A DNA stretch of 32,000 bases from an uncultured Verrucomicrobiota bacterium (GCA_942490575.1 CALNYA010000060.1:1-32000), one strand, 5' to 3'; positions 11,088-32,000 are shown, numbered from the stretch's first letter. Made by a program: numbers and translations. The notes: generated from the letters alone by a model not told the origin.

Positions 11088-11175
11088 GGTGGAAAGATTC
11101 CGTCGCAGCGTGCCCGGACTTCCGAAATTCGGCAACCACGCGACCCGCGCAGACTATCCGGTCCGCCCCGAGGAC

Positions 11176-11197
11176 GTCACGTGTCAGTCACGATACT
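11176..11197. promoter_or_regulatory. Candidate Pho-box-like direct repeat (GTCAC at 11-bp phasing)
   Basis: GTCACGTGTCA GTCACGATACT: GTCAC occurs at 11176 and 11187, and a TGTCA core is present. The site lies in the divergent intergenic region between the DUF47-PiT operon and pstS. This is resemblance to the PhoB-box logic only; the consensus for this lineage is unknown. Confidence 0.25.
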
Positions 11198-11269
11198 TTC
11201 CCAAGTCATTACCAATCATGGATTTGAAGCGGACTCGAACCCTTCGCGCGCCGGGACTTCCCGTCCTTC

Positions 11270-11291
11270 GTCACCCAATCGACACATTCAC
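11270..11291. promoter_or_regulatory. Second candidate Pho-box-like direct repeat
   Basis: GTCACCCAATC GACACATTCAC: G[TA]CAC occurs at 11270 and 11281 (11-bp phasing), about 120 nt upstream of the pstS ATG. Confidence 0.25.
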
Positions 11292-11402
11292 GCCACTCGG
11301 ACGCGACACGTCGGTCGCAAGGTCCGTTCCAGACGCGACCCTCCTCGGTCGAGCCACCCAACACTCTCCAACCCGTCGCCGCCCACCCACCCGATCGAAG
11401 CC

Positions 11403-12251: not shown

Positions 12252-12278
12252 TCGGATCCCCGCTTCCCCGATTGCCCA

Positions 12279-14434: not shown

Positions 14435-14452
14435 CGGACCGACCACCACCCC

Positions 14453-15295
14453 ATGCCGCCCTCCCATCCCGCCCAGGCCAACCCCATTGCCGTCGCTCCC
14501 GACGCCACGGGTCCCGGCCCGTCCACCCCCGAAGCCGCCGCCCCGCCCCTCATCGTCACCCGCGACCTGGAGCTGTTCTACGGCAAGACCCAGGCCCTCA
14601 AAGGGATCTCCCTCGCCGTCCAGGAACGACTCGTCACCGCCTTCATCGGTCCGTCCGGCTGCGGTAAATCCACCCTGCTCCGCTGCTTCAATCGCATGAA
14701 CGATCTCATCGACCACGTCCGGGTCACCGGCCGGTGCTCGATCGGCGGCGAAGACATTTACGGCCCCGACGTCGATGTCATCGAGCTCCGGAAACGCGTC
14801 GGCATGGTCTTTCAGAAGTCCAATCCGTTTCCCAAATCCATCTACGAGAACGTCGCCTACGGACTCCGCCTCCACGGCACCCGCGACCGACGCACCCTCG
14901 ACGAGGTGGTGGAACGTTCCCTCCGCGGCGCCGCCCTCTGGGACGAGGTCAAGGACCGCCTCCACCAGAGCGCCCTCGGCCTCTCCGGCGGCCAGCAACA
15001 ACGCCTTTGCATCGCGAGGGCCATCGCCATCCGCCCCGAGATCATCCTGATGGACGAACCCGCCTCCGCCCTCGACCCCCTCGCCACCACCAAGATCGAG
15101 GAACTCATCCTCGACCTCAAAAAGGAGTTCACCATCGTCATCGTCACCCACAACATGCAGCAGGCGACCCGGATCTCCGATCACACCGCGTTCTTCTACC
15201 TCGGCGAACTCATCGAGTACGACACCACCGTCAAGATCTTCTCCAACCCCGGAAGAAAACAGACCGAGGACTACGTCACCGGCCGTTTCGGCTGA
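14453..15295 (+). CDS. pstB: Phosphate ABC transporter ATP-binding protein PstB
   Basis: ORF 14453..15295. It has Walker [10 protein letters not shown], the signature [14 protein letters not shown], Walker [13 protein letters not shown] and the PstB-typical C-terminus [10 protein letters not shown]. Confidence 0.95.
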
Positions 15296-15332: not shown

Positions 15333-16010
15333 ATGACCCACTTCGAAGCCAGCATCGACGGCCTCCGGCAACAGCTCCTCACCATGGCCAGCTACGCCGC
15401 CGAGTCGATTCGCAACGCGGTCCGCGCGGTCGTCGAACGCGACGACGAACTCGGACGGCGAGTCGAGGAGGACGACTCGCTCCTCGACGACCTCGAGATC
15501 GCCATCGACGAACTCGCCATCCAACTCCTCCTGCGCGCGCCCCTCGCCCGCGACCTCCGCCTCATCATGGTCGCCACCAAGGTCAGCCACGACCTGGAAC
15601 GTGTCGGCGACGAAGCCACCGCCATCGCCCGGCGCGCCCGGGATCTCAACCGCGAACCGCAACTCAAGGCGCCGATCGACCTTCCCCGCATGGCCGCGAT
15701 GGTCTCCGAGATGCTGGCCGAATCCCTGGACGCCTTCGTCACCGGCGATTGCACCCGCGCCCGCGCCATCGTTCCGCGCGACAAACAAGTCGACGGCCTC
15801 AACAAACAACTCCAGAGCGAGCTCACCGCGCTGATCGTCGAATCCCCTGGAAACACGACGCGCTGCCTCAACCTCATGGCGATCAGCAAACGCCTCGAAC
15901 GCATCGGCGACCACGCCAAGAACATCGCCGAGGAGGTCGTCTACCTGCACGAGGCCACCGACATCCGCCACACCCAGCGCGTGGCCCCGGACGGCCCATG
16001 CGCCTCCTAG
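15333..16010 (+). CDS. phoU: Phosphate signalling complex protein PhoU
   Basis: ORF 15333..16010. It has two PhoU repeats with ...DDLEIAIDELAIQLL...ARDLRLIMVATKVSHDLERVGDEATAIA... and ...LMAISKRLERIGDHAKNIAEEVVYL. It lies immediately after pstB. Confidence 0.92.
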   Translation: MTHFEASIDGLRQQLLTMASYAAESIRNAVRAVVERDDELGRRVEEDDSLLDDLEIAIDELAIQLLLRAPLARDLRLIMVATKVSHDLERVGDEATAIARRARDLNREPQLKAPIDLPRMAAMVSEMLAESLDAFVTGDCTRARAIVPRDKQVDGLNKQLQSELTALIVESPGNTTRCLNLMAISKRLERIGDHAKNIAEEVVYLHEATDIRHTQRVAPDGPCAS

Positions 16011-17236
16011 TCGCGACCCGCCAGCTCGGTTTCGGAGGCGGCGTCGAAACCCATCTTCAGTCCGTCCTGCCGCTCCTTCACGCCGCCGGCCATTCCCTCG
16101 CCCTTCTTCACGAACAGTCCGCCCCCGAGGGCCTCGATCTCGTCCTCGAAAGCGCCCCGCCGATCCCGCGCATCGCCACGACGGGACGCCCGATCCGCGC
16201 CGTCCTCGCCGACGTTCAGGCCTTCGCCCCGGATTGGATCTACAACCATGGCCTCGACGACCCCAACCTCGAGGACCACCTGACCCGCCGGTTTCCGGCG
16301 CTCCTCTTCGCCCACAATTACTACGGGATCTGCGTCAGCGGCACCCGCTGCCACGCCGGCCGCGAAGTCATCCCGTGCCGGCGCGCGTTCGGCGCGGCGT
16401 GTCTCGCCGTCTACCTCCCCCTGCGCTGCGGGGGCCGAAACCCCTGGACCATGATCCAGCGCTACCGGATCGAGGCCCGCCGCCACGCCATCCTCCGGCG
16501 CTACGCGGCCATCCTCGTCGCCAGCCGGCATGTGGCGTCCCAGTTCGAACGGAACGGCATCGATCCCGCCCGGATCCATCGCGTGCCCCTCTTCCCACCC
16601 GGCGTCGTTCCCGCCCCCGCCCCGCCCGCGCCGAGACCGCCCACCGGCCGGGTTCTCTTCCTCGGCCGCGTCACTCCCCAGAAAGGCCTCGACCACCTCG
16701 TCCCCGCCCTCGTCCAGGCCCAGGCCAGCCTGGGTCGCCCGCTCCAACTCGTGGTCGCCGGCGACGGACCCGAACGGGACGGCCTTCTCGCCGTCGCGGA
16801 GCGGGATGGACTCGCCACCGAAGCGCTGGGGTGGATCACGCTCGCCCAGCGGAACCAGATCCTGGCCGGCATCGATCTCCTGGCGGTTCCCAGCACGTGG
16901 CCGGAGCCGTTCGGCCTTGTCGGGCTTGAAGCGGCCTGCCTCGGGGTTCCCTCCGCGGGCTACGCGTCCGGTGGAATCCCCGAGTGGCTACTACCCGGCG
17001 TGACCGGGGAATTGGCGACCGGGATTCCCCCAAAACCTGAATCGCTCGCCCGCGCCGTCGCGCGGGCCCTCGGGGACCCCGCGCATTGGCAGGCCCTGCG
17101 TCGAGGCGCCTGGGAACACGCCCGCGCCTGGACCCCCGAAGCCCACCTCGCCCGACTCCTCGGCGTGATCGCCTCCCTCACGGGTCGGGAGGAGGGGCGG
17201 CTTACCAGCCGCCCTCGGGCATCCGGCGGCTCGTAA
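15998..17236 (+). CDS. Glycosyltransferase family 4 (GT-B fold)
   Basis: ATG 15998 within track ORF 15749..17236; it overlaps the phoU end by 13 nt. The sequence reads MRLLVATRQLGFGGGVETH...VLFLGRVTPQKGLDHLV...LVVAGDGPE...DLLAVPSTWPEPFGLVGLEAACLGVPSAGYASGGIPEW. The last ~15 codons and the stop run into the REP-like hairpins at 17196-17242. Confidence 0.8.
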   Translation: MRLLVATRQLGFGGGVETHLQSVLPLLHAAGHSLALLHEQSAPEGLDLVLESAPPIPRIATTGRPIRAVLADVQAFAPDWIYNHGLDDPNLEDHLTRRFPALLFAHNYYGICVSGTRCHAGREVIPCRRAFGAACLAVYLPLRCGGRNPWTMIQRYRIEARRHAILRRYAAILVASRHVASQFERNGIDPARIHRVPLFPPGVVPAPAPPAPRPPTGRVLFLGRVTPQKGLDHLVPALVQAQASLGRPLQLVVAGDGPERDGLLAVAERDGLATEALGWITLAQRNQILAGIDLLAVPSTWPEPFGLVGLEAACLGVPSAGYASGGIPEWLLPGVTGELATGIPPKPESLARAVARALGDPAHWQALRRGAWEHARAWTPEAHLARLLGVIASLTGREEGRLTSRPRASGGS

Positions 17237-17289: not shown

Positions 17290-17374
17290 CAAAAGACCTG
17301 TCCCTTGGTCGTGCCTCCCTTCGCGATGGCAAGTTCCAGATCATGGCCGGGTGCCTGGGGCGAGGCGGAGCGCC
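17290..17374. repeat. Dispersed repeat element, copy 1 (conserved 36-nt core at 17339-17374)
   Basis: The core GATCATGGCCGGGTGCCTGGGGCGAGGCGGAGCGCC matches 25142-25177 at 35 of 36 positions in the same orientation. The roughly 50 nt to the left show weaker similarity to 25088-25141. The core supplies the last 10 codons (ALRLAPGTRP) and the stop of the minus-strand gene 17341..18867. Confidence 0.65.
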
Positions 17375-18867
17375 ATTTCGTAACCCGCATCCGCCAGAAG
17401 CTTCGGGAACCGCCGGACATTGTCGCGGTCCCATTGTTTCACGTCGTCTCCCAGCCTGGGATCATCCCACCCGACAAGATACGGGCTGCGTCGCTGGGCG
17501 GAATCGCGCGCTTCGGCGTGGTGCCAGCCCGACTGCAACCGCTCCACGACCCAGCGGCCGTGCTCCATTTCCGCCATTCGTTCGATCACCTCGTCGGAAA
17601 AACTGGGACATCGGATCGGTCCCGAGGCGGGACGCACCTCGTATCCGACCGACCTGAGGATGCTTCGCATGGAGTCGATCTGGTCGAGATTGGACTGCCG
17701 GAGATCCGGGTCGAGGTGCTCCCAGATCCGCATCGCCCGGTCCTGGTTCTTGTGACGGTTCTCTTCCAGGAATCGGGCGTGAATGAATCGCGCGAGCCGC
17801 TCCCGATCCTCCGGCCCCAAGCCGGAGGCCGTCGCATCCGGCGCGCCGCCGTGGATGAACGCGCGGACCGACATGGCGTCGTCGGGAAGGACGATGACTC
17901 CCTGGAACTCGTGGGCCTGGATCTCCTGTTCCAGGACGTCCGCCTCGCGGCCACTGGCGCGGACGATGGCGACCCGGGCGCCCAGGGCCCAAGCAAAGCG
18001 GTATTCGAGCGCGGCGATCGAACCGCCGTTGATGCCCAGGACGCGCACATCCTCCGGCGCGATGCCGGAATCGAGAATGTCGAGCCAGTATTGGATCGGT
18101 TCCAACGCGGAAAACCGGTCCCGGTGCTTGCCGTTCCGGAGTTCGTGATACCGTTCGTCCCGGGTGGCTGTACCGTTCGCCGGCAACGATTTCGGCAGGT
18201 AACCGATCGTGTGGATCCGGTCGACGCGGGATTCCCCCAGTTCACCCACCAGTCCACAGACTCCTTCCCGCGTGCCGCCTGAAATGAGGGTCCCCTCGAA
18301 ATCCGCGAACCCGCGTCGCAGCAGGTCGCGATACCCGTCGAGATCGCCTGTGCGCGCCGGGTCGCAGCCCCCCGCCACGATGACCACGGGTCCTTGGATC
18401 GGGGGCTTGTCGGCGGTCGCTCGCCGACGCACCTCCTCGAGGGACGCGGCGTCCGGGAAGCGCGCGGCCAGGGCCGCGACGAGAAACCGCTGGACGCATT
18501 GAACGTCGTGACGATGGGGATCCGCCGACCCCAGCAAGCTGGCGGTCTTGAGCGCCGAATCCAGAAAAGACCGGACTTGGGGCCGTTGAACCGCGCGGGC
18601 CAAGGCCGCCAGGCATTCCCATTCGTGCTCAGGGCCCAACAGCAACCGGAAAGCCGCGATCCGATAGATGGCCCACGGGATATTGACCCCGACCGCGATC
18701 TGGTCCTCGCAGGTCCGAATCGCCTCTTCGAGGCTCGGCTGAAGGAGCGGGACGAATCCGGTGTCCCGGTCGACCACGATCCGCTGGCGAACGTATCCGC
18801 CCAGAGCCGCCGGGTCGGACAGCTTTGTCCGAAACGCATCCTGGGAAAAGCGAGCATCGGGATTCAT
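17341..18867 (-). CDS. SLOG (LOG/LSDAT-like) domain protein with a C-terminal tandem RyR-domain module
   Basis: ORF 17341..18867, 508 aa. It has a helical N-region, then the Rossmannoid segment GPVVIVAGGCDP...GTLISGGTREGVCGLVGELGE...IGYLP...RVLGINGGSIAALEYRFAWALGARVAIVRASGREADVL. Two RyR-type repeats follow: RLARFIHARFLEEN...IWEHLDPDLRQSNLDQIDSMRSILRSVGYEV and ERMAEMEHGRWVVERLQSGWHHAEARD...SPYLVGWDDP...DVKQWDRDNVRRFPKLLADAGYEM. Domain calls are by eye from motif patterns. Confidence 0.7.
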   Translation of the reverse strand: MNPDARFSQDAFRTKLSDPAALGGYVRQRIVVDRDTGFVPLLQPSLEEAIRTCEDQIAVGVNIPWAIYRIAAFRLLLGPEHEWECLAALARAVQRPQVRSFLDSALKTASLLGSADPHRHDVQCVQRFLVAALAARFPDAASLEEVRRRATADKPPIQGPVVIVAGGCDPARTGDLDGYRDLLRRGFADFEGTLISGGTREGVCGLVGELGESRVDRIHTIGYLPKSLPANGTATRDERYHELRNGKHRDRFSALEPIQYWLDILDSGIAPEDVRVLGINGGSIAALEYRFAWALGARVAIVRASGREADVLEQEIQAHEFQGVIVLPDDAMSVRAFIHGGAPDATASGLGPEDRERLARFIHARFLEENRHKNQDRAMRIWEHLDPDLRQSNLDQIDSMRSILRSVGYEVRPASGPIRCPSFSDEVIERMAEMEHGRWVVERLQSGWHHAEARDSAQRRSPYLVGWDDPRLGDDVKQWDRDNVRRFPKLLADAGYEMALRLAPGTRP

Positions 18868-18949: not shown

Positions 18950-21727
18950 TCAGCCCTCTTCGGCTCGGACGCGAGTCGCCGGAACAATCCGAAATCCGGC
19001 GGCATCCAGGTGGCGACCGATCGCGCGGACGGCTTCCCGGTCCTTCTCGCGGGCGGCTCCAAGCTCCTCCCACGGACGCAGGCAATCATGGATCCGCCGC
19101 CGGTCGTCGCGCTTCGGGCCGTACACCCAACCTTCGCGCCGCTTCTCGGCCATCCAGCGTTCGTGTTCCCGCCGCGCCAGAGGCTCCACCTGCCGGGCCG
19201 TCAACCGGATCGCGGCGCCCCTGGCGCCGATCCGCTCCTCGAACGTGAGTCCGATCGAGAGCAACTGCGCCGGAATCTGGTTCGCCTGACCTCGGTTCGA
19301 CTCCTTCACGTCTTCCGGAAGCTTGTCCCACCGCTGGTGCGTCCGCTTCTTCGGATCATAGGTCCGGTCCCGCCGCCGCGCCTTGAGGTAGATCTCGTGG
19401 ATCGCCCGGGCCACACGATCGACGTCGTTCCCGAACGGCGACGGATGCCGCGCGAGGCCGAGGAATTCCTGGGCCGGAGCGTGCATCGTGAGTTGGTCCG
19501 GCGCCGGCAGGCAGGACGCGTCCAGAGAGGGACGTCCGCTGAAGGAACTCATCTCCAGCAGCGCCACCAGCGAACGCACGCCATGCCGCGGATGAGACAC
19601 CTGCAGGAACGCCCGCAACACTCCCGTGTCGATGGGCACCCGTCCCGCCGGGTCCATCATCGCGGCCGCCTTGGTCTTCAACTGAAATCGCAGCACGAGG
19701 GCCCGCCGCAACAAGACCGCCACCGATCCTGGCAACCGGTCGTGCGCGATGTCGGGAACATCGACGTGCCCCCGCAGCCGGCTGACAAAGTCCGGCCCCT
19801 TGCAGTCACGGAACGCATCCGCCTGGGCGTCCTCCCTCCGCGAGGCCTTGGGCGCCGGCGCCCCCGAATCCGGGGCCGATCCACGGTGCGCCGGGAGCGG
19901 GCGGATGAATTCCGCGTAGGTGCCCGCCGTTCCACCCGCGAAGATGAACACCGCCTTCCCGATGGGGTGGGCGGCGCCTCGATCGATGAATTCCCCGTCC
20001 TGCATCGGCGCCAGAAAATAGCGCAGCCATCCCAACTTCTGACCACGCAGCGCGGCATCGAATTCGTCGAAGAACACCAAGGGCACCACCCCGCGCAGTC
20101 CCTGGTCCCGAACCAGGTGGAGCGCCGCCGCCAACTCCTCCGGGTCACCGAACTGCGACACGTTGAAGGTGAGGGTCTCGATGACCGTCTTCCCTCGCAC
20201 CGATTCGGCGACTTCCGAAACCGCGAAGGACTTGCCGGAGCCGGGCGGCCCGAAGACGGCGAGGCTCAGCGGGCGCTTCGCCGCGGGTCGTTCGAGGTAT
20301 TCCCGCAGCAGGTGGCTGATCGCCCGGTAGGTTTCGATCTCCGCCCGATCGTAGGTGCGCAGGTCGTGGAAGACGCCCAAGGGCGCCGCGCCGAGCGCCG
20401 CCGCGCGACCGGTTCGAACCAGATCCATCGCCACCTCCAACGCCGAGGCTCCGGCGGGTAGGAGTGTGTCGAGGATGGCCCAAGGCACGCCCGCGTCACG
20501 GCCCCCGGTCACGGCGGGAATCCGGAGAAAGGGGAAATCCGCGCGGGTGGTCCCCGCGAAAAGATCACGTCCCGGGTACGCCGGAGCTCGAATACTCCCG
20601 AAGCCGAGCTCGAGCAACCGGCGCCCGGCTCCCAACCCGCACCGGATGCCGTCCACGATCGCCGACGGCGGCTCGGCGTCGTCCGAAGTCGCCCACCCAC
20701 CGGCCTCACGCTCCGCCGCGGCCAGCCTTCCCGCCACCGCCGCCACGAACGCGGAACCGAACCCCACCATGCCCCCGCGCCGCCGGGCCAGGTGCCCGTG
20801 CAGGAACCCGCCTTCGATGCCCATGGGGTCGTAAACCAACCAGGCCTCGGGCAAGCGACGCGAACCCGAATTCATTCGATACACGGCCCCATCCAGACCG
20901 AAGCGGACGATCAGATGCCGGCACTCGTGAAGCGAGGCGAAGGTCGCGTTCCCCGCCAATTCGCGAACGAGATCCAGCGCGGTGCTTTCCCAGGAAAGCC
21001 CCCGGCTGACGATCGCCCCGGCGAAACGCAGATCGTCGGCATCGACGATCACGATCAAACGGTCGCCGTGGCGCCGGCAAACCTCGTTCCAAAGCGGGTT
21101 CGAATCGCGGAAGGTCGGGTCGGAAACATCCGAGACCGGCAACGGCCGGTGGAGCTTGTACACCACCCAAGGCTTCGCCCCCGGCGTTGTGAGGGCCTTC
21201 GGCCAAAGATCCCGCCGATGCCGAAAGCTGTTGCCCGTGTCGTCGAGCACCACGAGCCCGGCCTCGGGAACGTCTCCGGGAAGAGCGGGAGCGAGGCGGG
21301 GATCGCCAAGGTCCGGACCGGAATAGCCGTGCGCGCGCGCAAGGCGGGCGACGTCGCCGTCGGCCACGGCTTCCAGGATCGAATGCACCAGGTCCTGGCG
21401 CTTGAGGCCGGGCAGTTCCTCATCCGACAGCGGAAGGTCCGGCGCCCGAGTCCCGGACGGATCCACCGGCCGCGGGATGACAGGGCCGACAACGGATCGC
21501 CCTTCGCAGGCTTCGGCGACCCACCGCGACAGCAGCAGGGCGCCGCCCCGCAGGTGATGGGTCCGCGTTTCGCCGGTGAGACGCCAGTTGGGGATGACGG
21601 CGTCCGGGGATGACGGCCGCGGCATGGGCACGCCAACGACATCGAGACAGATGTCGCCGGCGACCACCACGGGAGAGGGGAGGGAAGGCGACGAGAGCGA
21701 GGACCGGCGGCTAGCAGGGTTGGGCAT
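18950..21727 (-). CDS. Multidomain protein: ribokinase/PfkB-like domain, AAA+ ATPase, C-terminal tandem RyR-domain module
   Basis: Track ORF 18950..21898. The likely start is the ATG at comp. 21725-21727 (MPNPASRR..., 925 aa), because the upstream 57 codons are Arg/His-rich junk. PfkB-like features are VVVAGDICLDVVG, LRGGALLL, LVVLDDTGN, LIVIVDADDL and GGMVGFGSAFVAAVAG. AAA+ features are Walker A AVFGPPGSGKSF (comp. about 20228-20251), Walker B VVPLVFFDEFD, FIFAGGT and DFVSRLRG. RyR repeats are VDRVARAIHEIYLKA...RWDKLPEDVKESNRGQANQIPAQLLSIGL and EPLARREHERWMAEKRREGWVYGPKRDD...HDCLRPWEELGAAREKDREAVRAIGRHLDAAGFRIV. Confidence 0.75.
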   Translation of the reverse strand: MPNPASRRSSLSSPSLPSPVVVAGDICLDVVGVPMPRPSSPDAVIPNWRLTGETRTHHLRGGALLLSRWVAEACEGRSVVGPVIPRPVDPSGTRAPDLPLSDEELPGLKRQDLVHSILEAVADGDVARLARAHGYSGPDLGDPRLAPALPGDVPEAGLVVLDDTGNSFRHRRDLWPKALTTPGAKPWVVYKLHRPLPVSDVSDPTFRDSNPLWNEVCRRHGDRLIVIVDADDLRFAGAIVSRGLSWESTALDLVRELAGNATFASLHECRHLIVRFGLDGAVYRMNSGSRRLPEAWLVYDPMGIEGGFLHGHLARRRGGMVGFGSAFVAAVAGRLAAAEREAGGWATSDDAEPPSAIVDGIRCGLGAGRRLLELGFGSIRAPAYPGRDLFAGTTRADFPFLRIPAVTGGRDAGVPWAILDTLLPAGASALEVAMDLVRTGRAAALGAAPLGVFHDLRTYDRAEIETYRAISHLLREYLERPAAKRPLSLAVFGPPGSGKSFAVSEVAESVRGKTVIETLTFNVSQFGDPEELAAALHLVRDQGLRGVVPLVFFDEFDAALRGQKLGWLRYFLAPMQDGEFIDRGAAHPIGKAVFIFAGGTAGTYAEFIRPLPAHRGSAPDSGAPAPKASRREDAQADAFRDCKGPDFVSRLRGHVDVPDIAHDRLPGSVAVLLRRALVLRFQLKTKAAAMMDPAGRVPIDTGVLRAFLQVSHPRHGVRSLVALLEMSSFSGRPSLDASCLPAPDQLTMHAPAQEFLGLARHPSPFGNDVDRVARAIHEIYLKARRRDRTYDPKKRTHQRWDKLPEDVKESNRGQANQIPAQLLSIGLTFEERIGARGAAIRLTARQVEPLARREHERWMAEKRREGWVYGPKRDDRRRIHDCLRPWEELGAAREKDREAVRAIGRHLDAAGFRIVPATRVRAEEG

Positions 21728-22127
21728 GGTCGAGGCGGACCATCGGTCCCTAGCAGATCCTGATCGGTGGCGGCAAGAATGAGCTCTTGGCTGCGAGAAC
21801 CATCGACCCACGATTGGACAGGCATCGAGCCCATGTATCGGTTCGCGCGGATGGATGCGCCGCTCCATGAGGAAGGGTTCGCGAGCCCGGGGGATCACGA
21901 ATCGTCCGCTGTCCTATCACGCCCAAGTCCCCCCGGGGAAGGAACGGCCTCGCGCCTCCAGCGAGGCCGCCTCCCCAAAATTTCGGGAATGGATCCCGGT
22001 CAGAGCGCTGAGGTCTGGGTGGGAAGCCCGGGCTTGAAAAGAAGGGGGCTCGCGCCCAACGTCCCGCGAGTGGATTCCCTACCCATCGCGGGCGTCTGGA
22101 ATACTCCACCGCGACAGCTCGAACCGC

Positions 22128-23255
22128 ATGTCCATGGCTGAGCGCCGGCGAATCCTGCTCGTCGACGATGACCCCGACATCCTGGAGTTGTACCGGGAAC
22201 TCCTCGGCGGCCTGCCTGATGCTCCGGATGTCCAAACGGCGGAATCCGGAGAAAAGGCCCTGGAACTGATCTCTTGCGAGGAATTCACCGCGTTTATCGT
22301 CGACCTGAGCATGCCCAAGATGAATGGGCTACAGCTCGTCGCGAAAGTTCGTGAACTGCGGCCCAGGTTGCCGGTCGCCGTGCTCACCGCGCTGGCGGAC
22401 CCAGAGTCCGAGCGTATCGCCACAGGACTAGGCGTTGATTGCTTTCTACAAAAGCCTTCCTCCTCCATTGATGTGGGACGGCTGCTGCGGTCCATCGAGT
22501 CACTCTTGACCCGACGTCCGCCCGGGCCAATCGAGCCGAAGTCCGAAGTCGCGCCGCGGCTGCCGAACTCGGCCCCGCCAGCCCACGAAGACCTTTATCC
22601 ATTCCTCATGGGCGGCCTCCTGCACAACGCGCTGAACACCCAGATGAGCCTCAACGGTCAGCTTGAAGTCCTTCAACGTTCCAGTCCCGGCGCTCCGATC
22701 AACGCCACGGCCCGGGCGCGTCTCCAAGCGCAGGTCTCCCATCTGGGGGCCTATTTGCGGCTGATGCAGGAGATTTCACGCGACTTTTATGCGGCCGACG
22801 AGGGATCTGGTTCCACCGAACAACTCGATGTGCTTTGCGAGGAGATTTCCAACCAACTGCCTCATGTCACTTGGGCTTTTTCGATCGGATCGGTCGACGA
22901 CCGCCCCCCTCTCCCCGCGGGATTGATGGCCTTTGTGGTCAGCGAACTGCTCCACAACGCGGGTCAGGCCTGCGGCCACCTGGGCGACCCGCGCGTGTCG
23001 CTGACCGTCGCGAACGACGGGCGGCAACGACTGACTCAAATCGAGTGCTCGGACAACGGCCCAGGCCTGCCAACCGGAATCCTGTCGGACATCCAACAAC
23101 AGCGCCTGCGCGCGCCGAAAACTGCCGGGACCGGCGGATACGGCCTGTTCCTCGTGCAGGAATTGACGACTCGGCTGAACGGACGTTTTCATGCGTTCAA
23201 TCCCGAGGACGGCGGGGCTTGCCTGCGGGTGCTGCTGCCCTGGGACGTGAAGTAG
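22128..23255 (+). CDS. Cytoplasmic hybrid receiver-histidine kinase (REC-DHp-HATPase_c)
   Basis: ORF 22128..23255. REC features are ILLVDDDPD, FIVDLSMPKMNG, VAVLTA and FLQKP. The H-box-like segment is LMGGLLHNALNTQMSL, the N-box is VSELLHNAGQA, G1 is DNGPGLP and G2 is GTGGYGLFLVQ. There is no TM segment or recognisable sensor domain other than REC. Confidence 0.85.
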   Translation: MSMAERRRILLVDDDPDILELYRELLGGLPDAPDVQTAESGEKALELISCEEFTAFIVDLSMPKMNGLQLVAKVRELRPRLPVAVLTALADPESERIATGLGVDCFLQKPSSSIDVGRLLRSIESLLTRRPPGPIEPKSEVAPRLPNSAPPAHEDLYPFLMGGLLHNALNTQMSLNGQLEVLQRSSPGAPINATARARLQAQVSHLGAYLRLMQEISRDFYAADEGSGSTEQLDVLCEEISNQLPHVTWAFSIGSVDDRPPLPAGLMAFVVSELLHNAGQACGHLGDPRVSLTVANDGRQRLTQIECSDNGPGLPTGILSDIQQQRLRAPKTAGTGGYGLFLVQELTTRLNGRFHAFNPEDGGACLRVLLPWDVK

Positions 23256-23263
23256 GAGCCATC

Positions 23264-24058
23264 ATGGATCGGACTGAAAAGCTGACGTTGCTGGTCGTGG
23301 ACGATCAGAGCGAGGTCTTGGACGTGTACCGCGACGTCCTGCAGGAAGGACTGAAGCACGAAGTGGAGTGCGTCTGCATGCCGGCGGAAGCGCTTCATCT
23401 GGCCCAGCACCGTCTCTTCGACATGGCGATAATCGACGCCAAGATCCCGTACCGGCAGGCCCCGCTCGGGGGACTCCTGCTGGCCGAGGACATCGGCCGG
23501 ATCCTGGGTTCCCATTCGGTCCTCCTGATGTCCCAATATGACCTCCGCGGTCAGGTGTCCCAGTTCAACTCCAACTTCCGCTTCCTAGCCAAGCCTCGGC
23601 CGGAGCAGTCCATCGTTTTATGGGCGGAGAAGGTGCTGCTCGAAAAAGTGAAATCCATGGTGAGAAGCCAGTACGGCTTCGTAGTCATGCCTTACGGACG
23701 GACGGAGTGTGACCGATGGTACCAGGACACACTGTCGCCATGGATGCATGAGGCCGGATATGCTCTCAGACGAATGGATGAAATTGCGACCGTCAAAGCC
23801 ATCAACGTCGAACTCCTCAACCGGATCCGCGACGCTCACTTCGTCGCGGTCTACATCCCGTTCGAGAATCCCAACGTGTACTTCGAAGCCGGTTTCGCGA
23901 TGGCCTTGGAGAAGTTCCTACTGCTCTTCTCCCCCAATCGGGAAAGCCTCCCCTTCGACATCCGCGCGAATCGCGTCTTCCACACCTCCGACGGCGGAAC
24001 CCAATCCGCGAGGGCGGAGCTGGTCAATTTCATGCGCGCCCTTCGGGGAATTCACTGA
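23264..24058 (+). CDS. Response regulator with a C-terminal nucleoside 2-deoxyribosyltransferase / DNPH1 (Rcl)-like domain
   Basis: ATG 23264 within track ORF 22835..24058, preceded by AGGAG at 23254-23258, and 8 nt after the kinase stop. REC features are LLVVDDQSE, MAIIDAKIP, VLLMSQ and FLAKP. The C-domain (about 23669-24049) reads YGFVVMPYG...WYQDTLSPWMHEAGYAL...INVELLNRIRDAHFVAVYIPFENPNVYFEAGFAMALEKFLLLFSP...LPFDI. It has the beta-alpha pattern and the conserved Glu of the N-(deoxy)ribosyltransferase-like fold. Confidence 0.7.
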   Translation: MDRTEKLTLLVVDDQSEVLDVYRDVLQEGLKHEVECVCMPAEALHLAQHRLFDMAIIDAKIPYRQAPLGGLLLAEDIGRILGSHSVLLMSQYDLRGQVSQFNSNFRFLAKPRPEQSIVLWAEKVLLEKVKSMVRSQYGFVVMPYGRTECDRWYQDTLSPWMHEAGYALRRMDEIATVKAINVELLNRIRDAHFVAVYIPFENPNVYFEAGFAMALEKFLLLFSPNRESLPFDIRANRVFHTSDGGTQSARAELVNFMRALRGIH

Positions 24059-24139: not shown

Positions 24140-24394
24140 TCAATTCTTTGTGATACCCATCAGCTTCTCCCATTCCCCGCTAAAGAGCCTGATGTTGTCC
24201 GAGATCTTTGGAGGCTGCTCCAGCACCTTGCCCATCAGCCGATCCGCCATCTCGGGATTCATGCGGGTCAGTTCCGCCGCCGCGACCACGAGAGCCAGGC
24301 AATTGTTGATGTCGTGCCTCACCGTGGAGAGGTGGCGGTTGAGCATGTCGATCTGCTCAACGCTCAGGGTGACCGGACTGGTCGGCAGCTGCAT
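24140..24394 (-). CDS. Small stand-alone DHp (HisKA-like) protein, possible phosphotransfer or kinase-modulating protein
   Basis: This is the C-terminal 84 codons of track ORF 24140..24604, starting from ATG (comp. 24392-24394): MQLPTSPVTLSVEQIDMLNRHLSTVRHDINNCLALVVAAAELTRMNPEMADRLMGKVLEQPPKISDNIRLFSGEWEKLMGITKN. It has an H-box of the RHDINN type followed by a second helix, and no ATPase domain. The upstream part of the ORF is Gly/Arg-rich and unconvincing. Confidence 0.5.
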   Translation of the reverse strand: MQLPTSPVTLSVEQIDMLNRHLSTVRHDINNCLALVVAAAELTRMNPEMADRLMGKVLEQPPKISDNIRLFSGEWEKLMGITKN

Positions 24395-24619: not shown

Positions 24620-25057
24620 TCAAACACCTTGCCGTCGCAACACGAACTCGCGAACGGTGGGGGCGAGATCGAGCACTTCGAACTCCGCCCGCGCGACCCA
24701 TCGGAACTCACTGTGCTCCGCGGAAAGCTGAAGCTCACCCGCGACTCGTTCGACGACGTGATGGAGGCTCACGATCTTCACCCGATCCAATTCGAGTTCC
24801 GTGGCACCCAATAGGGCGCCGACCACGACCTCGAAGCCGACCTCTTCCCGCACCTCGCGGCGCAGCGCGTCCTCGATCGTTTCGCCGGCGTTCAGTTTGC
24901 CCCCGGGCAGTTCCCATTGACCCCCGAATCGTTTCGAATCAATTGCCCGACGGAGGAACAGGACCTTTCCATCGCCGTCGCGAAGCACCGCGCGCACGGA
25001 GATTCCCCGAGCTTTGCCAGCGGGAATGCCCGACGGCGGCGACGGAGCGGCGAACAT
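24620..25057 (-). CDS. NUDIX hydrolase (MutT-like)
   Basis: Track ORF 24620..25147. The likely start is the ATG at comp. 25055-25057 (MFAAPSPP...), because the first 30 codons fall inside repeat copy 2. The Nudix box is GGQWELPGGKLNAGETIEDALRREVREEVGF. Confidence 0.85.
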   Translation of the reverse strand: MFAAPSPPSGIPAGKARGISVRAVLRDGDGKVLFLRRAIDSKRFGGQWELPGGKLNAGETIEDALRREVREEVGFEVVVGALLGATELELDRVKIVSLHHVVERVAGELQLSAEHSEFRWVARAEFEVLDLAPTVREFVLRRQGV

Positions 25058-25087
25058 TTCCGAGGGTTTGACGCGCGGGTGGTTTTC

Positions 25088-25177
25088 GCAAGAGGTCTTG
25101 CCTTTGGCTCCGAGCGGACCGCCCTCCTGCTCGCAATTCCCGATCATGGCCGGGTGCCTGGCGCGAGGCGGAGCGCC
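25088..25177. repeat. Dispersed repeat element, copy 2 (conserved 36-nt core at 25142-25177)
   Basis: The core GATCATGGCCGGGTGCCTGGCGCGAGGCGGAGCGCC differs by one base from 17339-17374 and has the same orientation. It supplies the C-terminal ALRLAPGTRP and stop of gene 25144..25827, and a spurious N-terminal extension to the NUDIX ORF. Confidence 0.65.
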
Positions 25178-27598: not shown

Positions 27599-28939
27599 TC
27601 AGACAAAGGCGCCAAAGGCCCAACCGGTGAGGGTGGCCATGACGACGACCAGGCCGGTGAAGGCGAGGGTCTTCCTCCAACCCATCACCGACTTGAGAAC
27701 GAGAATGCTGGGGAGCGACAGCGCCGGGCCCGCCAGGAGGAGCGTCAACATGGGACCCTGATGCATCCCGAGCTTGCCCAGGGCCTCGCAGATGGGGACT
27801 TCCGTGAGGGTGGCGAAGTACCAGAACGAGCCGATGACGCTGGCCACGAGGTTGGCCGAAAACGAGTTGTCCCCGACCAGTCGAGCCACGGCGGCCTCCG
27901 GGATCAGGGCTCCGACAAATCCGACCACGAACACCCCGCCGAACAGAAGGGGCACGATCTGTTTGGAGAAATCCCAGGTGTTGCCCATCCAGTCGCCGAC
28001 ATCCCGACGGTCCAGCCAGCGCCAGGTCATCAGCAGCACGGCGAGGCCCACCGCGCCCGCGAACCACCACTTGCGGTGGTGAACCCAGATCACCCAGGTA
28101 TCCGCCTCACGGATCGACGTGATCCCGGACTTCGCGAGGGTGACCTTGGCGCCGGCCGGCTGGTCCTTCCAAGGGGCCTCCAATTGATACAGGTATTCGT
28201 CGCGAGTCTCCTGGAGTGTCACCGCTTGGATGGAATCCCCGGAGGTCGTCGTCACGACCACGTTCCCCGGGTTGTACCAGTCGCTGAGGACTAGGAACGC
28301 GACCAGGCCGGCCAGGAAGATCGAAGTCTTCCAAAGCGGGCGACGCGGCGCCTCGGGTTCGGGCAGGTGCGCGGACTCCCGCACCCGAGCCTCTTCCTCC
28401 CGGCGGAAGAACCAGGCCATGAGGCAGCCGATGACCACCGAAAAGACGATGGCCCCCACGGCGCGGCCGAGGCCGATGGGAAGGCCCAGGACCCGAGCCG
28501 AGAGGAAGATCGCCAGGACGTTGATGGCCGGGCCGGAGTACAGAAACGCGGTGGCGGGTCCAAGACCCGCTCCAAGGCGATGAATACCCGCGAAGACGGG
28601 GAGGACGCTGCAGGAGCAGACGGCCAGGATGATGCCGGAAACCGAAGCGACGCCATACGCGAGCGGTTTCGGCGAGGTCGGTCCCAGGTACCGCAGCACC
28701 GCCTGCTGGGAGAGGAAGGTGGCGATGGCTCCGGCGATGAACATGGCGGGGACCACGCAGGCGAGCGTGTGGTTGCGGACGTACCACTGGAGAAGCTTGA
28801 AGCCCTCTTGAATGGCGGTCTGGACGGCGGTGTTGGAAAGGGGCAGGTGATAGGCCGCAAGGAAGACACCCGCCATCCAGCCGAGAATTCGGAGTTCCTT
28901 GCGCCAGGGCGCTGGGAGGGCGGAGGAGGTGGCGTTCAC
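27599..28939 (-). CDS. ArsP/DUF318-type permease
   Basis: ORF 27599..28939 (GTG start). It is multi-TM, with the Cys motif ILAVCSCSVLPVF and ...FLYSGPAINVLAI... in the first half and ...ATLTEVPICEALGKLGM...LLAGPALSLPS... in the second. It has a soluble insert of about 90 aa in the middle. It sits in the common arsR / permease / small-Trx arrangement. Confidence 0.75.
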   Translation of the reverse strand: MNATSSALPAPWRKELRILGWMAGVFLAAYHLPLSNTAVQTAIQEGFKLLQWYVRNHTLACVVPAMFIAGAIATFLSQQAVLRYLGPTSPKPLAYGVASVSGIILAVCSCSVLPVFAGIHRLGAGLGPATAFLYSGPAINVLAIFLSARVLGLPIGLGRAVGAIVFSVVIGCLMAWFFRREEEARVRESAHLPEPEAPRRPLWKTSIFLAGLVAFLVLSDWYNPGNVVVTTTSGDSIQAVTLQETRDEYLYQLEAPWKDQPAGAKVTLAKSGITSIREADTWVIWVHHRKWWFAGAVGLAVLLMTWRWLDRRDVGDWMGNTWDFSKQIVPLLFGGVFVVGFVGALIPEAAVARLVGDNSFSANLVASVIGSFWYFATLTEVPICEALGKLGMHQGPMLTLLLAGPALSLPSILVLKSVMGWRKTLAFTGLVVVMATLTGWAFGAFV

Positions 28940-28958
28940 AATTAGAAGCAGAAAAGCT

Positions 28959-28978
28959 ATTTAGCGCATGCGCGAAAT
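28959..28978. promoter_or_regulatory. Imperfect 20-bp palindrome, candidate ArsR-type operator upstream of the permease gene
   Basis: ATTTAGCGCATGCGCGAAAT is symmetric at 18 of 20 positions with a perfect GCGCATGCGC core. It lies between the arsR stop (28996) and the permease start (28939). It shares the 11-mer GCTATTTAGCG (28956-28966) with the site at 29330-29340. Confidence 0.4.
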
Positions 28979-28995
28979 TCTGGGCGAAAAAAGGG

Positions 28996-29304
28996 TCATC
29001 GGCCGCCCCCGTTGGATTTCACGTCGCAGACGCACTGGAAGAAGTTCATCACGCACGGGGTCATGAGACGGTAGAAAACCTGGGTGCCCCGCTTGTCGTC
29101 ATCAACGATGCCGGCGTTCTTCAGGATGGAGAGGTGGCGCGACACGGTCGGCATCTCCGAGCCGACCATGTCGGCGAGGTCGCGGACGCACCGTTCGCCG
29201 CGGGAAAGTTCGTCGACGATCAGGAGGCGACCCGGATGACCGAGGGCCTTGAAGACCTGGGACTGGGACTTGAAGTCGGCGGGCTTGAGCGGGTGCTTGG
29301 GCAT
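28996..29304 (-). CDS. arsR: ArsR/SmtB family metalloregulatory repressor
   Basis: ORF 28996..29304, 102 aa: ...VFKALGHPGRLLIVDELSRGERCVRDLADMVGSEMPTVSRHLSILKNAGIVDDDKRGTQVFYRL. This is a winged HTH with Cys residues in both the helix-3 region and the C-terminal tail. Confidence 0.85.
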   Translation of the reverse strand: MPKHPLKPADFKSQSQVFKALGHPGRLLIVDELSRGERCVRDLADMVGSEMPTVSRHLSILKNAGIVDDDKRGTQVFYRLMTPCVMNFFQCVCDVKSNGGGR

Positions 29305-29326
29305 GGCGGCCTTACGTCGAAGCTTA

Positions 29327-29342
29327 TTCGCTATTTAGCGAA
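29327..29342. promoter_or_regulatory. Perfect 7-2-7 inverted repeat, candidate ArsR operator upstream of arsR
   Basis: TTCGCTA-TT-TAGCGAA lies 23 nt upstream of the arsR ATG (29304) in the 265-nt gap after acr3. It contains the same GCTATTTAGCG 11-mer as 28956-28966. Confidence 0.45.
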
Positions 29343-29569
29343 GTCTGTCAACTGGTGGGTGGTCGAACTCAGCTTCTCGGAAAGTTCCCAGATCGGTCCC
29401 ACATCGCGACAGCCCAAGTCCAGTCGGGTGTTCGCGGCCCGCCGGCCGGGTCTTGGGGCCGCGGCCCCCCACCGGACGCTGATCACACGCCGGGTCCCTC
29501 GGCGCACGCGGCGACCGAGCGGCAAAGCCAACGGACGGACCGCCACCGACATGGACGCGTTCGAGGCAT

Positions 29570-30667
29570 TCAGGCGCGCACGGCTCGGTTGTACCACCGG
29601 CGCGAGGCGTTGCACACGCGGCACACCGACAACATGACGGGCACTTCCACCAACACGCCGACGACGGTCGCCAGGGCGGCCGGGGAACCGGGGCCGAAGA
29701 GCGTGATGGCCACGGCCACGGCGAGTTCGAAGAAATTGCTGGCCCCGATCAAGGCGCCGGGAGACGCCACGTTGTGCGGCACCCGGAACCATCGCATGAG
29801 CAGGTAGGTCAGCCCGGAATTGAAGTACACCTGAAGCAGGATCGGAACGGCGAGGAGGAGCACGGCGAACCATTGGGTGGTCAGGTTCTCCGCCTGGAAG
29901 GCGAAGATGAGCACCAGAGTGGCCAGAAGGGCGATGATGGTCACCGGCTGAAAGCGAGGAAGAAGGGTCCCCTCGAACCAATCCGACCCGCGCGACCTCA
30001 AAAGCGTGGCGCGGGTGATCCAGCCGGCCGCCAACGGGATGACGATGAAGACCATGACCGAGGTGATGAGCACCTTCGCCGGCACGACGACCTGGGCGAC
30101 GCCGCAGAGGAACATCACGATCGGGGCGAAGGCCACGAGCATGACCAGGTCGTTCACAGCCACCTGGACCAACGTGTAGGCGGGGTCGCCATCCGTGAGG
30201 TAGCTCCACACGAAGACCATCGCCGTGCAGGGCGCCGCCGCGAGGATGATCAAGCCGGCGGTGTAGTTGCGCGCTGTCTCGGCGTCGATCCACCGGGAGA
30301 ACAGGGTCTGGATGAACAGCCACGCCAAGACGGCCATGCTGAATGGCTTGATCAGCCAGTTCACGAACAGGGTGACCAGAAGCCCCTTCGGCCGTCGGGC
30401 GATGCCTCCGATGGAGCCGAAATCCACCTTGAGCATCATCGGGTAGATCATGAGCCAGATCAGGACGGCGATGGGGACGTTGACCTGCGAGCCCCGACCG
30501 AACTCCATGCCGCTGAGGCTGGTCGTCAATCCAGGGGCCAGCTTGCCGATCAGAACCCCGACGACCATGCAGAGGAACACCCACAAGGTCAGGTAGCGCT
30601 CGAAGAACGCGAGTCGTTTGCGGGGCGTCGTCGTCGTCCCGGCGGTGGGGGATGTCGTGGTGCTCAT
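29570..30667 (-). CDS. acr3: ACR3 family arsenite efflux transporter
   Basis: ORF 29570..30667, 365 aa: ...FFERYLTLWVFLCMVVGVLIG...LMIYPMMLKVDF...LFVNWLIKPFSM...ILAAAPCTAMVFVWS...ASNFFELAVAVAI...VGVLVEVPVML. This is characteristic of Acr3/ArsB (BART superfamily). Confidence 0.92.
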   Translation of the reverse strand: MSTTTSPTAGTTTTPRKRLAFFERYLTLWVFLCMVVGVLIGKLAPGLTTSLSGMEFGRGSQVNVPIAVLIWLMIYPMMLKVDFGSIGGIARRPKGLLVTLFVNWLIKPFSMAVLAWLFIQTLFSRWIDAETARNYTAGLIILAAAPCTAMVFVWSYLTDGDPAYTLVQVAVNDLVMLVAFAPIVMFLCGVAQVVVPAKVLITSVMVFIVIPLAAGWITRATLLRSRGSDWFEGTLLPRFQPVTIIALLATLVLIFAFQAENLTTQWFAVLLLAVPILLQVYFNSGLTYLLMRWFRVPHNVASPGALIGASNFFELAVAVAITLFGPGSPAALATVVGVLVEVPVMLSVCRVCNASRRWYNRAVRA

Positions 30668-30716
30668 GGTGCCTTGTCGGAAATCCTCGAAGGAATCGTT
30701 TCGTGGACGTAGGTGG

Positions 30717-32000
30717 TCATGGATCGCGGGAGGTGGATGGGGCCTGGGAACCGAAGAACTGGCGAAGCCCCGCGGGTCCGACGGGTTCGTCGGCCACCCA
30801 GGGAACGACGGCGGTTCGGCTGGACCGGCGTTCGGAGACTTCGCGCAGGAATGGATTCTCCCCCGCCGCGCGCGCCGCCAGCACCGGGTCGCGCGTGCCG
30901 GAAGCGGCGAGGCTCTGGTTCACGACCCACGCGAAGGGTTCGATGCCGGCGCGGCGGAGATCCGCTTGAAGGTCGGCGGCTTCATGAACGGGCGTGGGCT
31001 CCGGGACCGTCACAATCAGCACCCGCGACCACTCCGGATCACGGAGCCGCGGCAGGAGTTCTCGAACCTCGTCCGGAAGGTCGCTCGCCTTGCGCGCGAT
31101 CTCCCGATGATAGGCCTCCGTGGCATCCAGAAGCAGGAGCGTGTGGCCGGTCGGAGCGGTGTCCAGGACGACGAATCGATCGGCGCCCAGCGCGACCGTT
31201 CGGGCGAAGGCGCGAAACACCGCGATCTCCTCCGTGCACGGCGAGCGCAGGTCCTCCTCCAGCAGAGCCAGGGACTCCGGATCCAACCCCCGGCCATGGG
31301 TCGCGAGAACCTGATCGACATACGCCTGGGTCTCCGCCCGGGGATCGATTCGACTGACCGCCAAGCCCTCGATGTTCCCCGCGGCGTGCGCCACGTGCGC
31401 CGCGGGGTCCGTGGTGCTCAGGTGGACTTGGAACCCCAATTCGGCGAGGCGGGCCGCGATGGCGGCGGCGATCGTGGTTTTCCCAACGCCCCCTTTGCCC
31501 ATCGTCAGAATCACCCCGCGGCCAGCCCGCGCGAGCAGGCCGACAAGGCATTCAAGGGACTCCGTCACGCCGGAGTCCGCGTGGGGAGTTGGGGGTATGC
31601 TCGGTGACACCGGCGGAGCGTCGCGCCTGAGCAAGGACCGGAGAGCCGTGATTCCGACCAGATTGTGGTGTCGCAGAGGAACCCGGATGACCTCCATGCC
31701 CTCAAGGAACTCGGCGTGCTGCCGGAGAGCGTTCTCGCCGCGGTGCTGGATCGCGAGAGCGATCGGGTCTCCGTTCCCGGCTTCGAAGACACCGTTGAGG
31801 ATCAGTCGCTGACGCCGAACCTCCAGGGCCGCCAGTTCCCGACTCGCGCGGCTGGCCTCCAGGAGCGAAGCCGGCTGGGGGCGGCTCACGAGGATCACGG
31901 TGCTTCGCGAGCCTTCCCGCAGCGCCGCCAAAGCGCCCTCGTACACCGCCCGTTGCTTTTCCAACCCCGCCAGCGGCCCCAGACAGGAGGTTCCGGAGCG
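30717..32000 (-). CDS. arsA: Arsenite-transporting ATPase ArsA, 3' portion (gene continues past the right window edge)
   Basis: The track ORF 30717..31964 stays open in frame to position 32000. It shows the end of the first half (...VILVSRPQPASLLEA...) and the second-half P-loop ILTMGKGGVGKTTIAAAIA. It also has the DTAPTGHTLLLLD signature and VTVPEPTPVHEAADLQADLRRAGIEPFAWVVNQSL. Confidence 0.9.
   Translation of the reverse strand, partial: RSGTSCLGPLAGLEKQRAVYEGALAALREGSRSTVILVSRPQPASLLEASRASRELAALEVRRQRLILNGVFEAGNGDPIALAIQHRGENALRQHAEFLEGMEVIRVPLRHHNLVGITALRSLLRRDAPPVSPSIPPTPHADSGVTESLECLVGLLARAGRGVILTMGKGGVGKTTIAAAIAARLAELGFQVHLSTTDPAAHVAHAAGNIEGLAVSRIDPRAETQAYVDQVLATHGRGLDPESLALLEEDLRSPCTEEIAVFRAFARTVALGADRFVVLDTAPTGHTLLLLDATEAYHREIARKASDLPDEVRELLPRLRDPEWSRVLIVTVPEPTPVHEAADLQADLRRAGIEPFAWVVNQSLAASGTRDPVLAARAAGENPFLREVSERRSSRTAVVPWVADEPVGPAGLRQFFGSQAPSTSRDP

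Follow-up and report, generated by a model that had tools for sequence, protein, structure and literature searches.

A sensor-less histidine kinase paired with a receiver-fused regulator of the TIR/NDT/DNPH1 class: a probable phosphorelay-gated N-glycosidase in an uncultured Verrucomicrobiota bacterium

What does a histidine kinase without a sensor control when its partner response regulator ends in a domain that resembles nucleotide-cleaving enzymes? The question is raised by a stretch of 32,000 nucleotides (nt) of DNA from an uncultured Verrucomicrobiota bacterium (GCA_942490575.1, CALNYA010000060.1:1-32000; the whole stretch is called the window below), which carries such a pair of genes at positions 22128-24058. 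A sequence-only reading of this DNA had compared the pair with the anti-phage system Detocs, in which DtcA is a TPR-bearing kinase, DtcB a lone phosphate-buffering receiver and DtcC an effector that joins a receiver to a PNP domain (Cap17-type) or, more rarely, to a restriction endonuclease (REase), TOPRIM or transmembrane hydrolase domain (bioRxiv 10.1101/2023.01.24.525353). The analyses given here indicate that the pair is probably best explained as a phosphorelay-gated N-glycosidase of nucleotides or nicotinamide adenine dinucleotide (NAD+), that is, as a two-component system whose response regulator has a predicted enzymatic output; an immune role is a minority possibility.

The kinase gene (22128-23255, plus strand) encodes a REC-DHp-CA protein of 375 amino acids (aa), and its stop codon, TAG at 23253-23255, is overlapped by an AGGAG ribosome-binding site (23254-23258) that with its 5-nt spacer occupies positions 23254-23263 of the plus strand. 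The regulator open reading frame (23264-24058, plus strand, 264 aa) begins with the ATG at 23264, leaving a gap of 8 nt between the two genes. Both the gap and the AGGAG, already noticed by the sequence-only reading, were read directly from the sequence. Co-transcription of the two genes, which the same reading had proposed, is supported. The pair recurs abutting or overlapping in every related locus examined, and gene ends that overlap or stand no more than 14 nt apart in the orthologous loci are consistent with translational coupling.

Search of 5.8 billion proteins revealed a close family of 36 full-length homologues of the regulator (42-76% identity), labelled only 'response regulator' or 'CheY-like' in the sequence sources. 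Among GTDB species representatives the family was found in Nitrospira, Lentisphaeria, Verrucomicrobia subdivision 3, Kiritimatiellae, Myxococcales, a deltaproteobacterium, Planctomycetaceae and Acidobacteriota. A short sensor-less kinase gene lies directly upstream on the same strand in 22 of the 22 distinct loci for which upstream sequence was available, and this arrangement holds down to 25% regulator identity, with gene ends that overlap by 1-14 nt or are at most 14 nt apart. These loci belong to Nitrospira, Verrucomicrobia, Lentisphaeria, Kiritimatiellae, Myxococcales, Planctomycetes and Acidobacteria. The 135 neighbour proteins encoded at these 22 loci match 140 Pfam families, of which no more than two recur, Response_reg in 7 proteins and HATPase_c in 5, and two Nitrospira genomes have only the 2-kb module in common while their flanks are unrelated. 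Since the same two genes recur together in every related locus examined, they are not paired by chance; kinase and regulator together form the functional unit, which moves between genomic contexts. At one locus, L016 of Nitrospira sp. WA-bin32, some 1.3 kb of inserted DNA divides the regulator gene into two parts (8001-8501 and 9847-10092). That the insert is a group II intron is unsupported, the long open reading frame called within it having no Pfam match.

In the kinase, Pfam places a Response_reg domain on residues 9-113 (E = 9.5e-21) and an HATPase_c domain on residues 269-372 (E = 1.7e-11). The protein consists of a receiver (residues 1-125), a variable linker of 27 residues (126-152), the DHp domain, which was unmatched by Pfam HisKA, and a CA domain (approximately 255-375). 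Neither the Pfam scan nor the alignment of orthologues revealed a transmembrane, TPR, sensor or other input domain. The receiver residues D13-15, D59 (the phospho-acceptor, codon 22302-22304), T87 and K109 are all present, and the kinase family profile matches Spo0F-type receivers with an E value of 1e-28. The DHp histidine H166 (codon 22623-22625) lies in LYPFLMGGLLHNALNT, with the consensus LYPF(I/L)MGGLLHNALNT, and is invariant in eight orthologous kinases; the N-box residue N277 and the G2 box GYGL (336-341) are likewise invariant in the alignment of these eight, and the G1 box (309-313) retains DxGxG. The earlier description of a sensor-less REC-DHp-HATPase_c kinase with intact receiver residues thus agrees with the Pfam matches and with the invariance of H166, N277 and GYGL. 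The orthologues are either REC-DHp-CA proteins or DHp-CA alone and range from 243 to 455 aa. As the kinase has no sensor domain, its input must come via its receiver, a partner protein or another kinase.

The regulator begins with a receiver domain (residues 1-122; 23264-23629, plus strand) in which D13, D14, D58 (codon 23435-23437), S90 and K110 are invariant in 39 homologues. Taken alone the domain scores below the Pfam threshold (27.4 versus 30.2 bits), and the regulator family profile matches solved receivers in the PDB at E = 2.9e-9. The AlphaFold model of the regulator (pLDDT 91.4, pTM 0.88) has the receiver-type order of strands and helices, and a fold search with the full-length model returned solved receivers at template modelling (TM) scores of 0.74-0.77, normalised to the target; the matches of this full-length search (PleD, CheY-like proteins, PorX) are driven by the receiver only. 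The receiver had been called canonical, which is correct for the acidic pair, D58 and K110 and not for the threonine position, where a serine (S90) is found.

The output domain (residues 136-264; 23669-24058, plus strand) had been likened to nucleoside 2-deoxyribosyltransferases (NDT) and to DNPH1. Analysed alone, it matches the Pfam family Nuc_deoxyrib_tr (PF05014) at E = 1.2e-3 with 19.4 bits, under the gathering threshold of 28.8, and its best PADLOC match is the 'Effector TIR' model (E = 3.2e-7); there was no match to Pfam TIR or TIR_2, and NCBIfam holds no model for it. A HMMER scan with residues 125-264 as the query against 1.84 billion cluster representatives (clusters of 50% identity) returned 4911 relatives at E<=1e-3; at 90% identity the wider domain family gave at least 6977 clusters. 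Fifty of 70 sampled relatives match Nuc_deoxyrib_tr at E<=1e-3, and among those 50 clearing of the PF05014 cut-off was shown only for the first, P0045 (30.3 bits); a receiver is also carried by 11 of the 70. Other domains found in the sampled relatives are TIR_2, SIR2, Mrr, HSP70, EAD1/7, DUF4062 and a CAP12-type TIR. Distant relatives of the domain were also seen in Streptococcus phage Javan246 (L090, 3983-4642), where the gene is opposite in orientation to the surrounding early genes, and on a Brachybacterium plasmid (L089, approximately 5001-5747) beside a zeta-toxin gene, where the match crosses annotated gene boundaries.

A profile made of the output domain and 25 relatives was compared with the PDB, and the ranking obtained was DNPH1/Rcl (E = 1.7e-4), NDT (3e-3), the CMP N-glycosidase MilB (9e-3), Cap12 (0.2) and the plant TIR protein RUN1 (0.9). 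The AlphaFold model of the output domain alone has a pLDDT of 92.9, and Foldseek matched it to NDT (8qc0, E = 2.4e-5) and DNPH1 (8rpt, TM score 0.68), as well as to the TIR domains of SPARTA TIR-APAZ (0.69-0.72), SARM1 (0.53-0.64), AbTir (0.64) and SfSTING-TIR (0.60-0.61); the fold is common to these groups, and the TIR match therefore does not discriminate TIR from NDT/DNPH1. Because the hidden Markov model (HMM) searches, the profile-to-PDB comparison and the modelled fold agree, the output domain is placed in the TIR/NDT/DNPH1 (DrHyd) class and not in PNP_UDP; within the class it stands between two branches, NDT/DNPH1 and TIR. In the nomenclature of PMC9503650, TIR/DrHyd is a class of Rossmannoid N-glycosidases.

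Features of the output domain are the first beta-strand QYGFVVMPY, R170, D172, the N202-P203-N204 triplet, E208 (codon 23885-23887) within the motif FEAG, K217 and the PFDIR motif at 230-234. None of E208, N202, N204, D172, K217 and F231 varies across the 39 members of the family, and in 26 wider relatives the glutamate, the R..D pair and the second asparagine of NPN (N204) are invariant and N202 and the motif glycine nearly so. In the profile-to-PDB alignment the family motif YELG falls on the YELG of Rcl/DNPH1, which contains the catalytic glutamate of that enzyme at the beginning of the helix that follows strand 4, and N202 stands six residues before the glutamate, at the position of the phosphate-binding Ser87 of Rcl. 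Other active-site residues of NDT and DNPH1 are a tyrosine in the loop of strand 1 and two aspartates; this alignment covers the central part of the domain only, and the MPY or MPF that the family has after strand 1 and its invariant D172 are at most possible counterparts. The invariance of E208, N202, N204, D172, K217 and F231 argues for an active enzyme, and the output domain is, as the sequence-only reading proposed, NDT/DNPH1-like with a conserved glutamate of catalytic type.

How might the pair work? In the mechanism that we propose, the kinase would autophosphorylate on H166 under the control of its own receiver, in which D59 would serve either as an input phosphorylated by a sensor kinase encoded elsewhere or as a phosphate sink. 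The phosphoryl group would pass from the kinase to D58 of the regulator, and phosphorylation of the receiver would then drive a dimerisation or oligomerisation that assembles the active site of the output domain. The active site of NDT and DNPH1 needs residues of the neighbouring subunit for its completion, and that of TIR NADases forms upon induced oligomerisation, so that dimerisation of a receiver would be a natural switch for a domain of this type. Once assembled, the output domain would use E208 to break an N-glycosidic bond, either that of NAD+ or that of a (deoxy)nucleotide, and the outcome may be either depletion of the metabolite with growth arrest or a base or ADP-ribose-type product that serves as a signal. 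That the output is a phosphorylation-gated N-glycosidase, as the sequence-only reading had it, is the natural conclusion and, in our judgement, quite probable. Given such an output, a physiological role in stress or signalling has a little less than an even chance, and a role against phages or in biological conflict is distinctly less likely.

Several observations weigh against this N-glycosidase mechanism. The regulator of the window scores under the Pfam threshold for both of its domains; a scan for promoters and terminators found no consensus site delimiting the operon; no sensor kinase is encoded beside the module in the window; and the substrate may be NAD+ or a (deoxy)nucleoside mono- or triphosphate, both being possible and the sequence not deciding between them. 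Some of the domains in the TIR/DrHyd/SLOG class are, moreover, non-catalytic nucleotide sensors (PMC9503650), and the fold search also returned TIR domains of scaffolding type (MyD88, TLR10 and Hydra TRR-2). The output domain might thus be a nucleotide-binding or TIR-like assembly domain used in ligand sensing or scaffolding, but its glutamate and the NPN..E.G motif are invariant in the family and invariant or nearly so in the 26 distant relatives, and the family glutamate is aligned with the nucleophile of DNPH1, which together leave a non-catalytic role very improbable.

Locus variants give an indication of how the pair is wired. In two loci of Verrucomicrobia, L012 and L015, the kinase is reduced to DHp-CA (250 aa; 7252-8004 and 7159-7911, respectively) and the regulator gene is followed by a gene for a lone receiver of 134 aa (8831-9235 and 8738-9142), which shares 33% identity with the window kinase's receiver. 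These loci represent a gene fission or fusion of the kinase receiver and have a Detocs-like three-gene layout (DtcA/DtcC/DtcB); the separate gene indicates that the kinase receiver is a module which can be separated and which operates with the pair either in cis or in trans. In the window, an accessory gene of one lineage only (24140-24394, minus strand), convergent with the regulator gene, encodes a stand-alone DHp-like protein of 84 aa that lacks an ATPase domain, carries a VRHDINNCL motif resembling an H box and matches Pfam HisKA and SPOB_a weakly; it belongs to no NCBIfam family. Orthologues sharing 44-46% identity with it were seen at the corresponding place in three Verrucomicrobia loci only, each time on the minus strand: L012 (9258-9512), L013 (approximately 3040-3330) and L015 (approximately 9175-9426). 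In L012 and L015 the gene lies directly downstream of one for a PAS-HisKA-CA-REC hybrid kinase. The small protein is a possible histidine phosphotransfer or phosphatase partner, and its arrangement with the hybrid kinase suggests a His-Asp-His-Asp relay that feeds the module.

Other loci add further kinases. In L024 a TM-GAF-PAS kinase gene abuts that of the short kinase, and in L006 (4469-8004) two paralogous kinases of the module type stand in tandem before the regulator, the second of which (736 aa) has an AAA+ domain of the sigma-54 activator type, together with HTH_8, placed between receiver and DHp-CA. REC-DrHyd regulators that are more distant belong to sensory phosphorelay operons of the ordinary kind: the order in L102 (1-6813) is a FIST-GAF kinase (1359 aa), a REC-(DHp)-CA protein (393 aa), a REC-sigma54 activator and the REC-DrHyd regulator, and in L101 (4232-11110) a REC protein and a 2028-aa Y_Y_Y-GAFx3 kinase are encoded convergently to the regulator. 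Because of these variants (the split receiver, the DHp-like protein with its hybrid kinase, the kinases of L024 and L006 and the operons of L101 and L102) we favour a two-tier cascade, in which the kinase receiver would take its input from an upstream sensor kinase and the DrHyd regulator would be the terminal enzymatic output. By analogy with DtcB, the kinase receiver could alternatively act as a phosphate sink.

A rival explanation is a Detocs-like abortive infection: the kinase would be activated on infection, the phosphorylated regulator would deplete NAD+ or nucleotides and so stop the cell, and the kinase's own receiver, or the lone one of the split versions, would like DtcB absorb leaky phosphorylation. 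The logic would be that of Detocs, a kinase with a receiver-fused N-glycosidase effector and an extra receiver (bioRxiv 10.1101/2023.01.24.525353), and the order of kinase, receiver-effector and lone receiver in L012 and L015 would fit it; the kinase, however, has no infection-sensor domain, and relatives of the pair are wired to GAF, PAS and FIST sensor kinases and to a sigma-54 activator, as in physiological signalling. A TIR effector is the top PADLOC model of the output domain, but the module gave no Detocs HMM match, the PADLOC scan returning no Dtc match at E<=0.1 with a library version that may lack Detocs models. As indirect evidence for a role in conflict, fusions to TIR_2, SIR2, Mrr, EAD1/7 and DUF4062 are seen among the domain's relatives, which also occur, moron-like, in temperate phages of Streptococcus and Staphylococcus and beside the plasmid zeta toxin; a DNA search of plasmids gave no match, and protein searches of plasmids, phages and viral contigs returned distant domain-only relatives and no full-length member of the family, neither among 2.9 million viral contigs nor in the phage and plasmid collections. 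The patchy phyletic spread, the unrelated contexts of the module in two Nitrospira genomes and a G+C content of 0.59-0.62 against 0.66 for the window would also speak for this explanation. The lower G+C content is nevertheless a weak sign of horizontal transfer because G+C at third codon positions is not clearly lower.

One locus, L003, adjoins genes for a TIR_2 protein, a DUF4062-TPR protein and an integrase, but a defence-like neighbour is present at only three to four of the 22 loci, and the module of the window lies among housekeeping genes (pst/PHO4, Bam-like, KdsB, redox and ars genes). The abortive-infection role put forward by the sequence-only reading thus finds no contextual support, receiver and kinase domains being the only recurrent neighbours; the largely housekeeping contexts found in the neighbour survey tell against the defence claim and leave the proposed enzymology untouched. 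We regard Detocs-like abortive infection as an unlikely explanation.

A product of the regulator had also been proposed as a signal for the neighbouring SLOG protein. Upstream of the pair on the minus strand, the window encodes a SLOG (LSDAT_prok)-RyR protein of 508 aa (17341-18867; Pfam RyR, E = 3.7e-10, and LSDAT_prok, E = 2.5e-4) and an AAA ATPase-RyR protein of 982 aa (18950-21898; Pfam RyR, E = 3.6e-13, with AAA_16 and AAA), the gene for the latter being divergent from the kinase gene; downstream, also on the minus strand, it encodes a MutT-like NUDIX hydrolase of 175 aa (24620-25147; Pfam NUDIX, E = 6.5e-23). All three lie outside the conserved core. These genes bring to mind a circuit that is coherent in theme, with a TIR/DrHyd generator, a SLOG sensor and a NUDIX degrader: the regulator would make an ADP-ribose-type or base messenger, SLOG-RyR and AAA-RyR would sense it and the NUDIX protein would degrade it. 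TIR, DrHyd and SLOG domains have been described as generators and sensors of ADP-ribose-derived signals (PMC9503650), and L015 encodes within 5 kb, in rearranged order, a RelA_SpoT-SLOG-RyR protein of 846 aa (2684-5224, plus strand) and a NUDIX protein. The SLOG-RyR homologue (31% identity) and the NUDIX homologue were found near the module only in L015, the AAA-RyR protein has no full-length homologue in the other loci, and L007 has a lone RyR protein of 108 aa (2390-2716, minus strand) 5 kb from the module; in the remaining loci examined no SLOG protein was found near it.

The proposal of a SLOG-sensed signal therefore retains its basis in the window and in L015 and not at the other loci. 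The genes are absent from the other loci, some 19 in number, including all those of Nitrospira, and as the window and L015 come from apparently related Verrucomicrobia, shared ancestry is the simpler explanation of the co-location. The SLOG-RyR genes are on the opposite strand, and the NUDIX protein is nearer to MutT-type enzymes than to ADP-ribose pyrophosphatases, its top NCBIfam matches being MutT/Nudix models and all matches falling below the cut-off. We consider the messenger circuit improbable, and its specific form, in which the regulator would be a phosphorelay-gated NAD+ glycohydrolase/cyclase whose product is read by SLOG-RyR and AAA-RyR and cleared by NUDIX, more improbable still. 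The same domain types read ADP-ribose and cyclic ADP-ribose in eukaryotic TRPM2 and ryanodine-receptor signalling; were the specific form true, it would be a bacterial second-messenger circuit built from domains of the TRPM2/ryanodine-receptor type and wired to a two-component system. The RyR proteins of the window, L015 and L007, unusual fusions except for the lone one of L007 and all without an NCBIfam family, may together form a nucleotide-sensing system of their own.

The outer flanks of the window were also annotated. Directly upstream of the SLOG-RyR gene, positions 15749-17233 (plus strand) encode a GT4 glycosyltransferase that also scores above the Pfam 'GT4-conflict' threshold (37.6 versus 26 bits). 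Genes of a pst-type phosphate ABC transporter and of a PHO4 transporter occupy 9322-15292, and 27599-32000 (minus strand) holds an ars cluster (ArsP permease, ArsR, an Acr3-type SBF transporter and ArsA) together with thioredoxin and DsbD genes.

If the phosphorelay-gated mechanism holds, an N-glycosidase of the TIR/NDT class would be a new enzymatic output of two-component signalling. The output domain has a very large family, nearly all of it without annotation, and the pair would provide a clean, genetically tractable switch by which the activation and the substrate of this family could be approached, with D58, E208 and H166 as the key sites. It bears, further, on whether the Detocs-style logic of phosphorylating to deplete a nucleotide reaches beyond PNP effectors, and on whether nucleotide depletion serves ordinary stress signalling besides immunity.

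Compared with characterised enzymes, the output domain shares with DNPH1/Rcl and the NDT family (PF05014) the flavodoxin-like three-layer alpha/beta fold, whose parallel sheet has five strands (Foldseek E = 2.4e-5 to 1e-4, TM score 0.6-0.68), and a glutamate that is likewise positioned and set in an aromatic-E-(L/A)-G motif; DNPH1, NDT and MilB are its best solved relatives by the family profile. It differs from DNPH1 and NDT in its identity to them of only about 15-18%, in its fusion to a receiver, in a family signature of its own (MPF/Y, R.D, NPNV.(Y/F)E.G and PFD.R) and in the score of the window protein, which stays under the Pfam threshold. TIR NADases (Cap12/STING-TIR, Pycsar TIR, SPARTA TIR-APAZ, ThsB and SARM1) show a fold similarity equal to or better than that of NDT and DNPH1, whereas the sequence profiles favour DNPH1/NDT over Cap12 and RUN1. 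Induced oligomerisation activates the TIR effectors, and a phosphorylated receiver could bring about the same; their trigger is a cyclic nucleotide or a guide RNA-target duplex, and here it would be phosphorylation. An NDT-like N-glycosidase is employed as a regulated toxic effector of phage defence by Retron-Eco1 (Ec86), under the control of a reverse transcriptase-msDNA complex and not of phosphotransfer; the PDB profile search gave no sequence match to an effector of this type.

Gating of an enzyme domain by a receiver, often through phosphorylation-driven dimerisation, links the regulator to the GGDEF protein PleD, the HD-GYP protein RpfG, CheB and PorX, from which it differs in its predicted output chemistry, the cleavage of N-glycosidic bonds by a domain of the TIR/NDT class. 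In the searchable literature we found no receiver-fused regulator of the TIR/NDT class, no such kinase pair and no Detocs variant of this kind; comparative-genomics surveys may list REC-DrHyd fusions. With Detocs the pair has in common that two-component phosphotransfer controls a receiver-fused enzyme that cleaves nucleotides at the N-glycosidic bond (here by prediction) and that there is an extra receiver, fused here to the kinase and encoded by a separate gene in L012 and L015. The pair thus resembles Detocs in outline, as the sequence-only reading saw, but membership in Detocs is rejected: the kinase is REC-DHp-CA or DHp-CA without the N-terminal TPR sensor of DtcA, the effector is of the TIR/NDT/DNPH1 class instead of PNP/Cap17 (or REase, TOPRIM or transmembrane hydrolase), the window has no lone receiver gene that would correspond to the stand-alone DtcB, and PADLOC, in a library version that may lack Detocs models, returned no Detocs match. 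Enrichment in defence islands, too, is lacking here, and the relatives are linked to GAF, PAS and FIST sensor kinases. The pair is best filed as a two-component system with a putative enzymatic output, parallel in its logic to Detocs.

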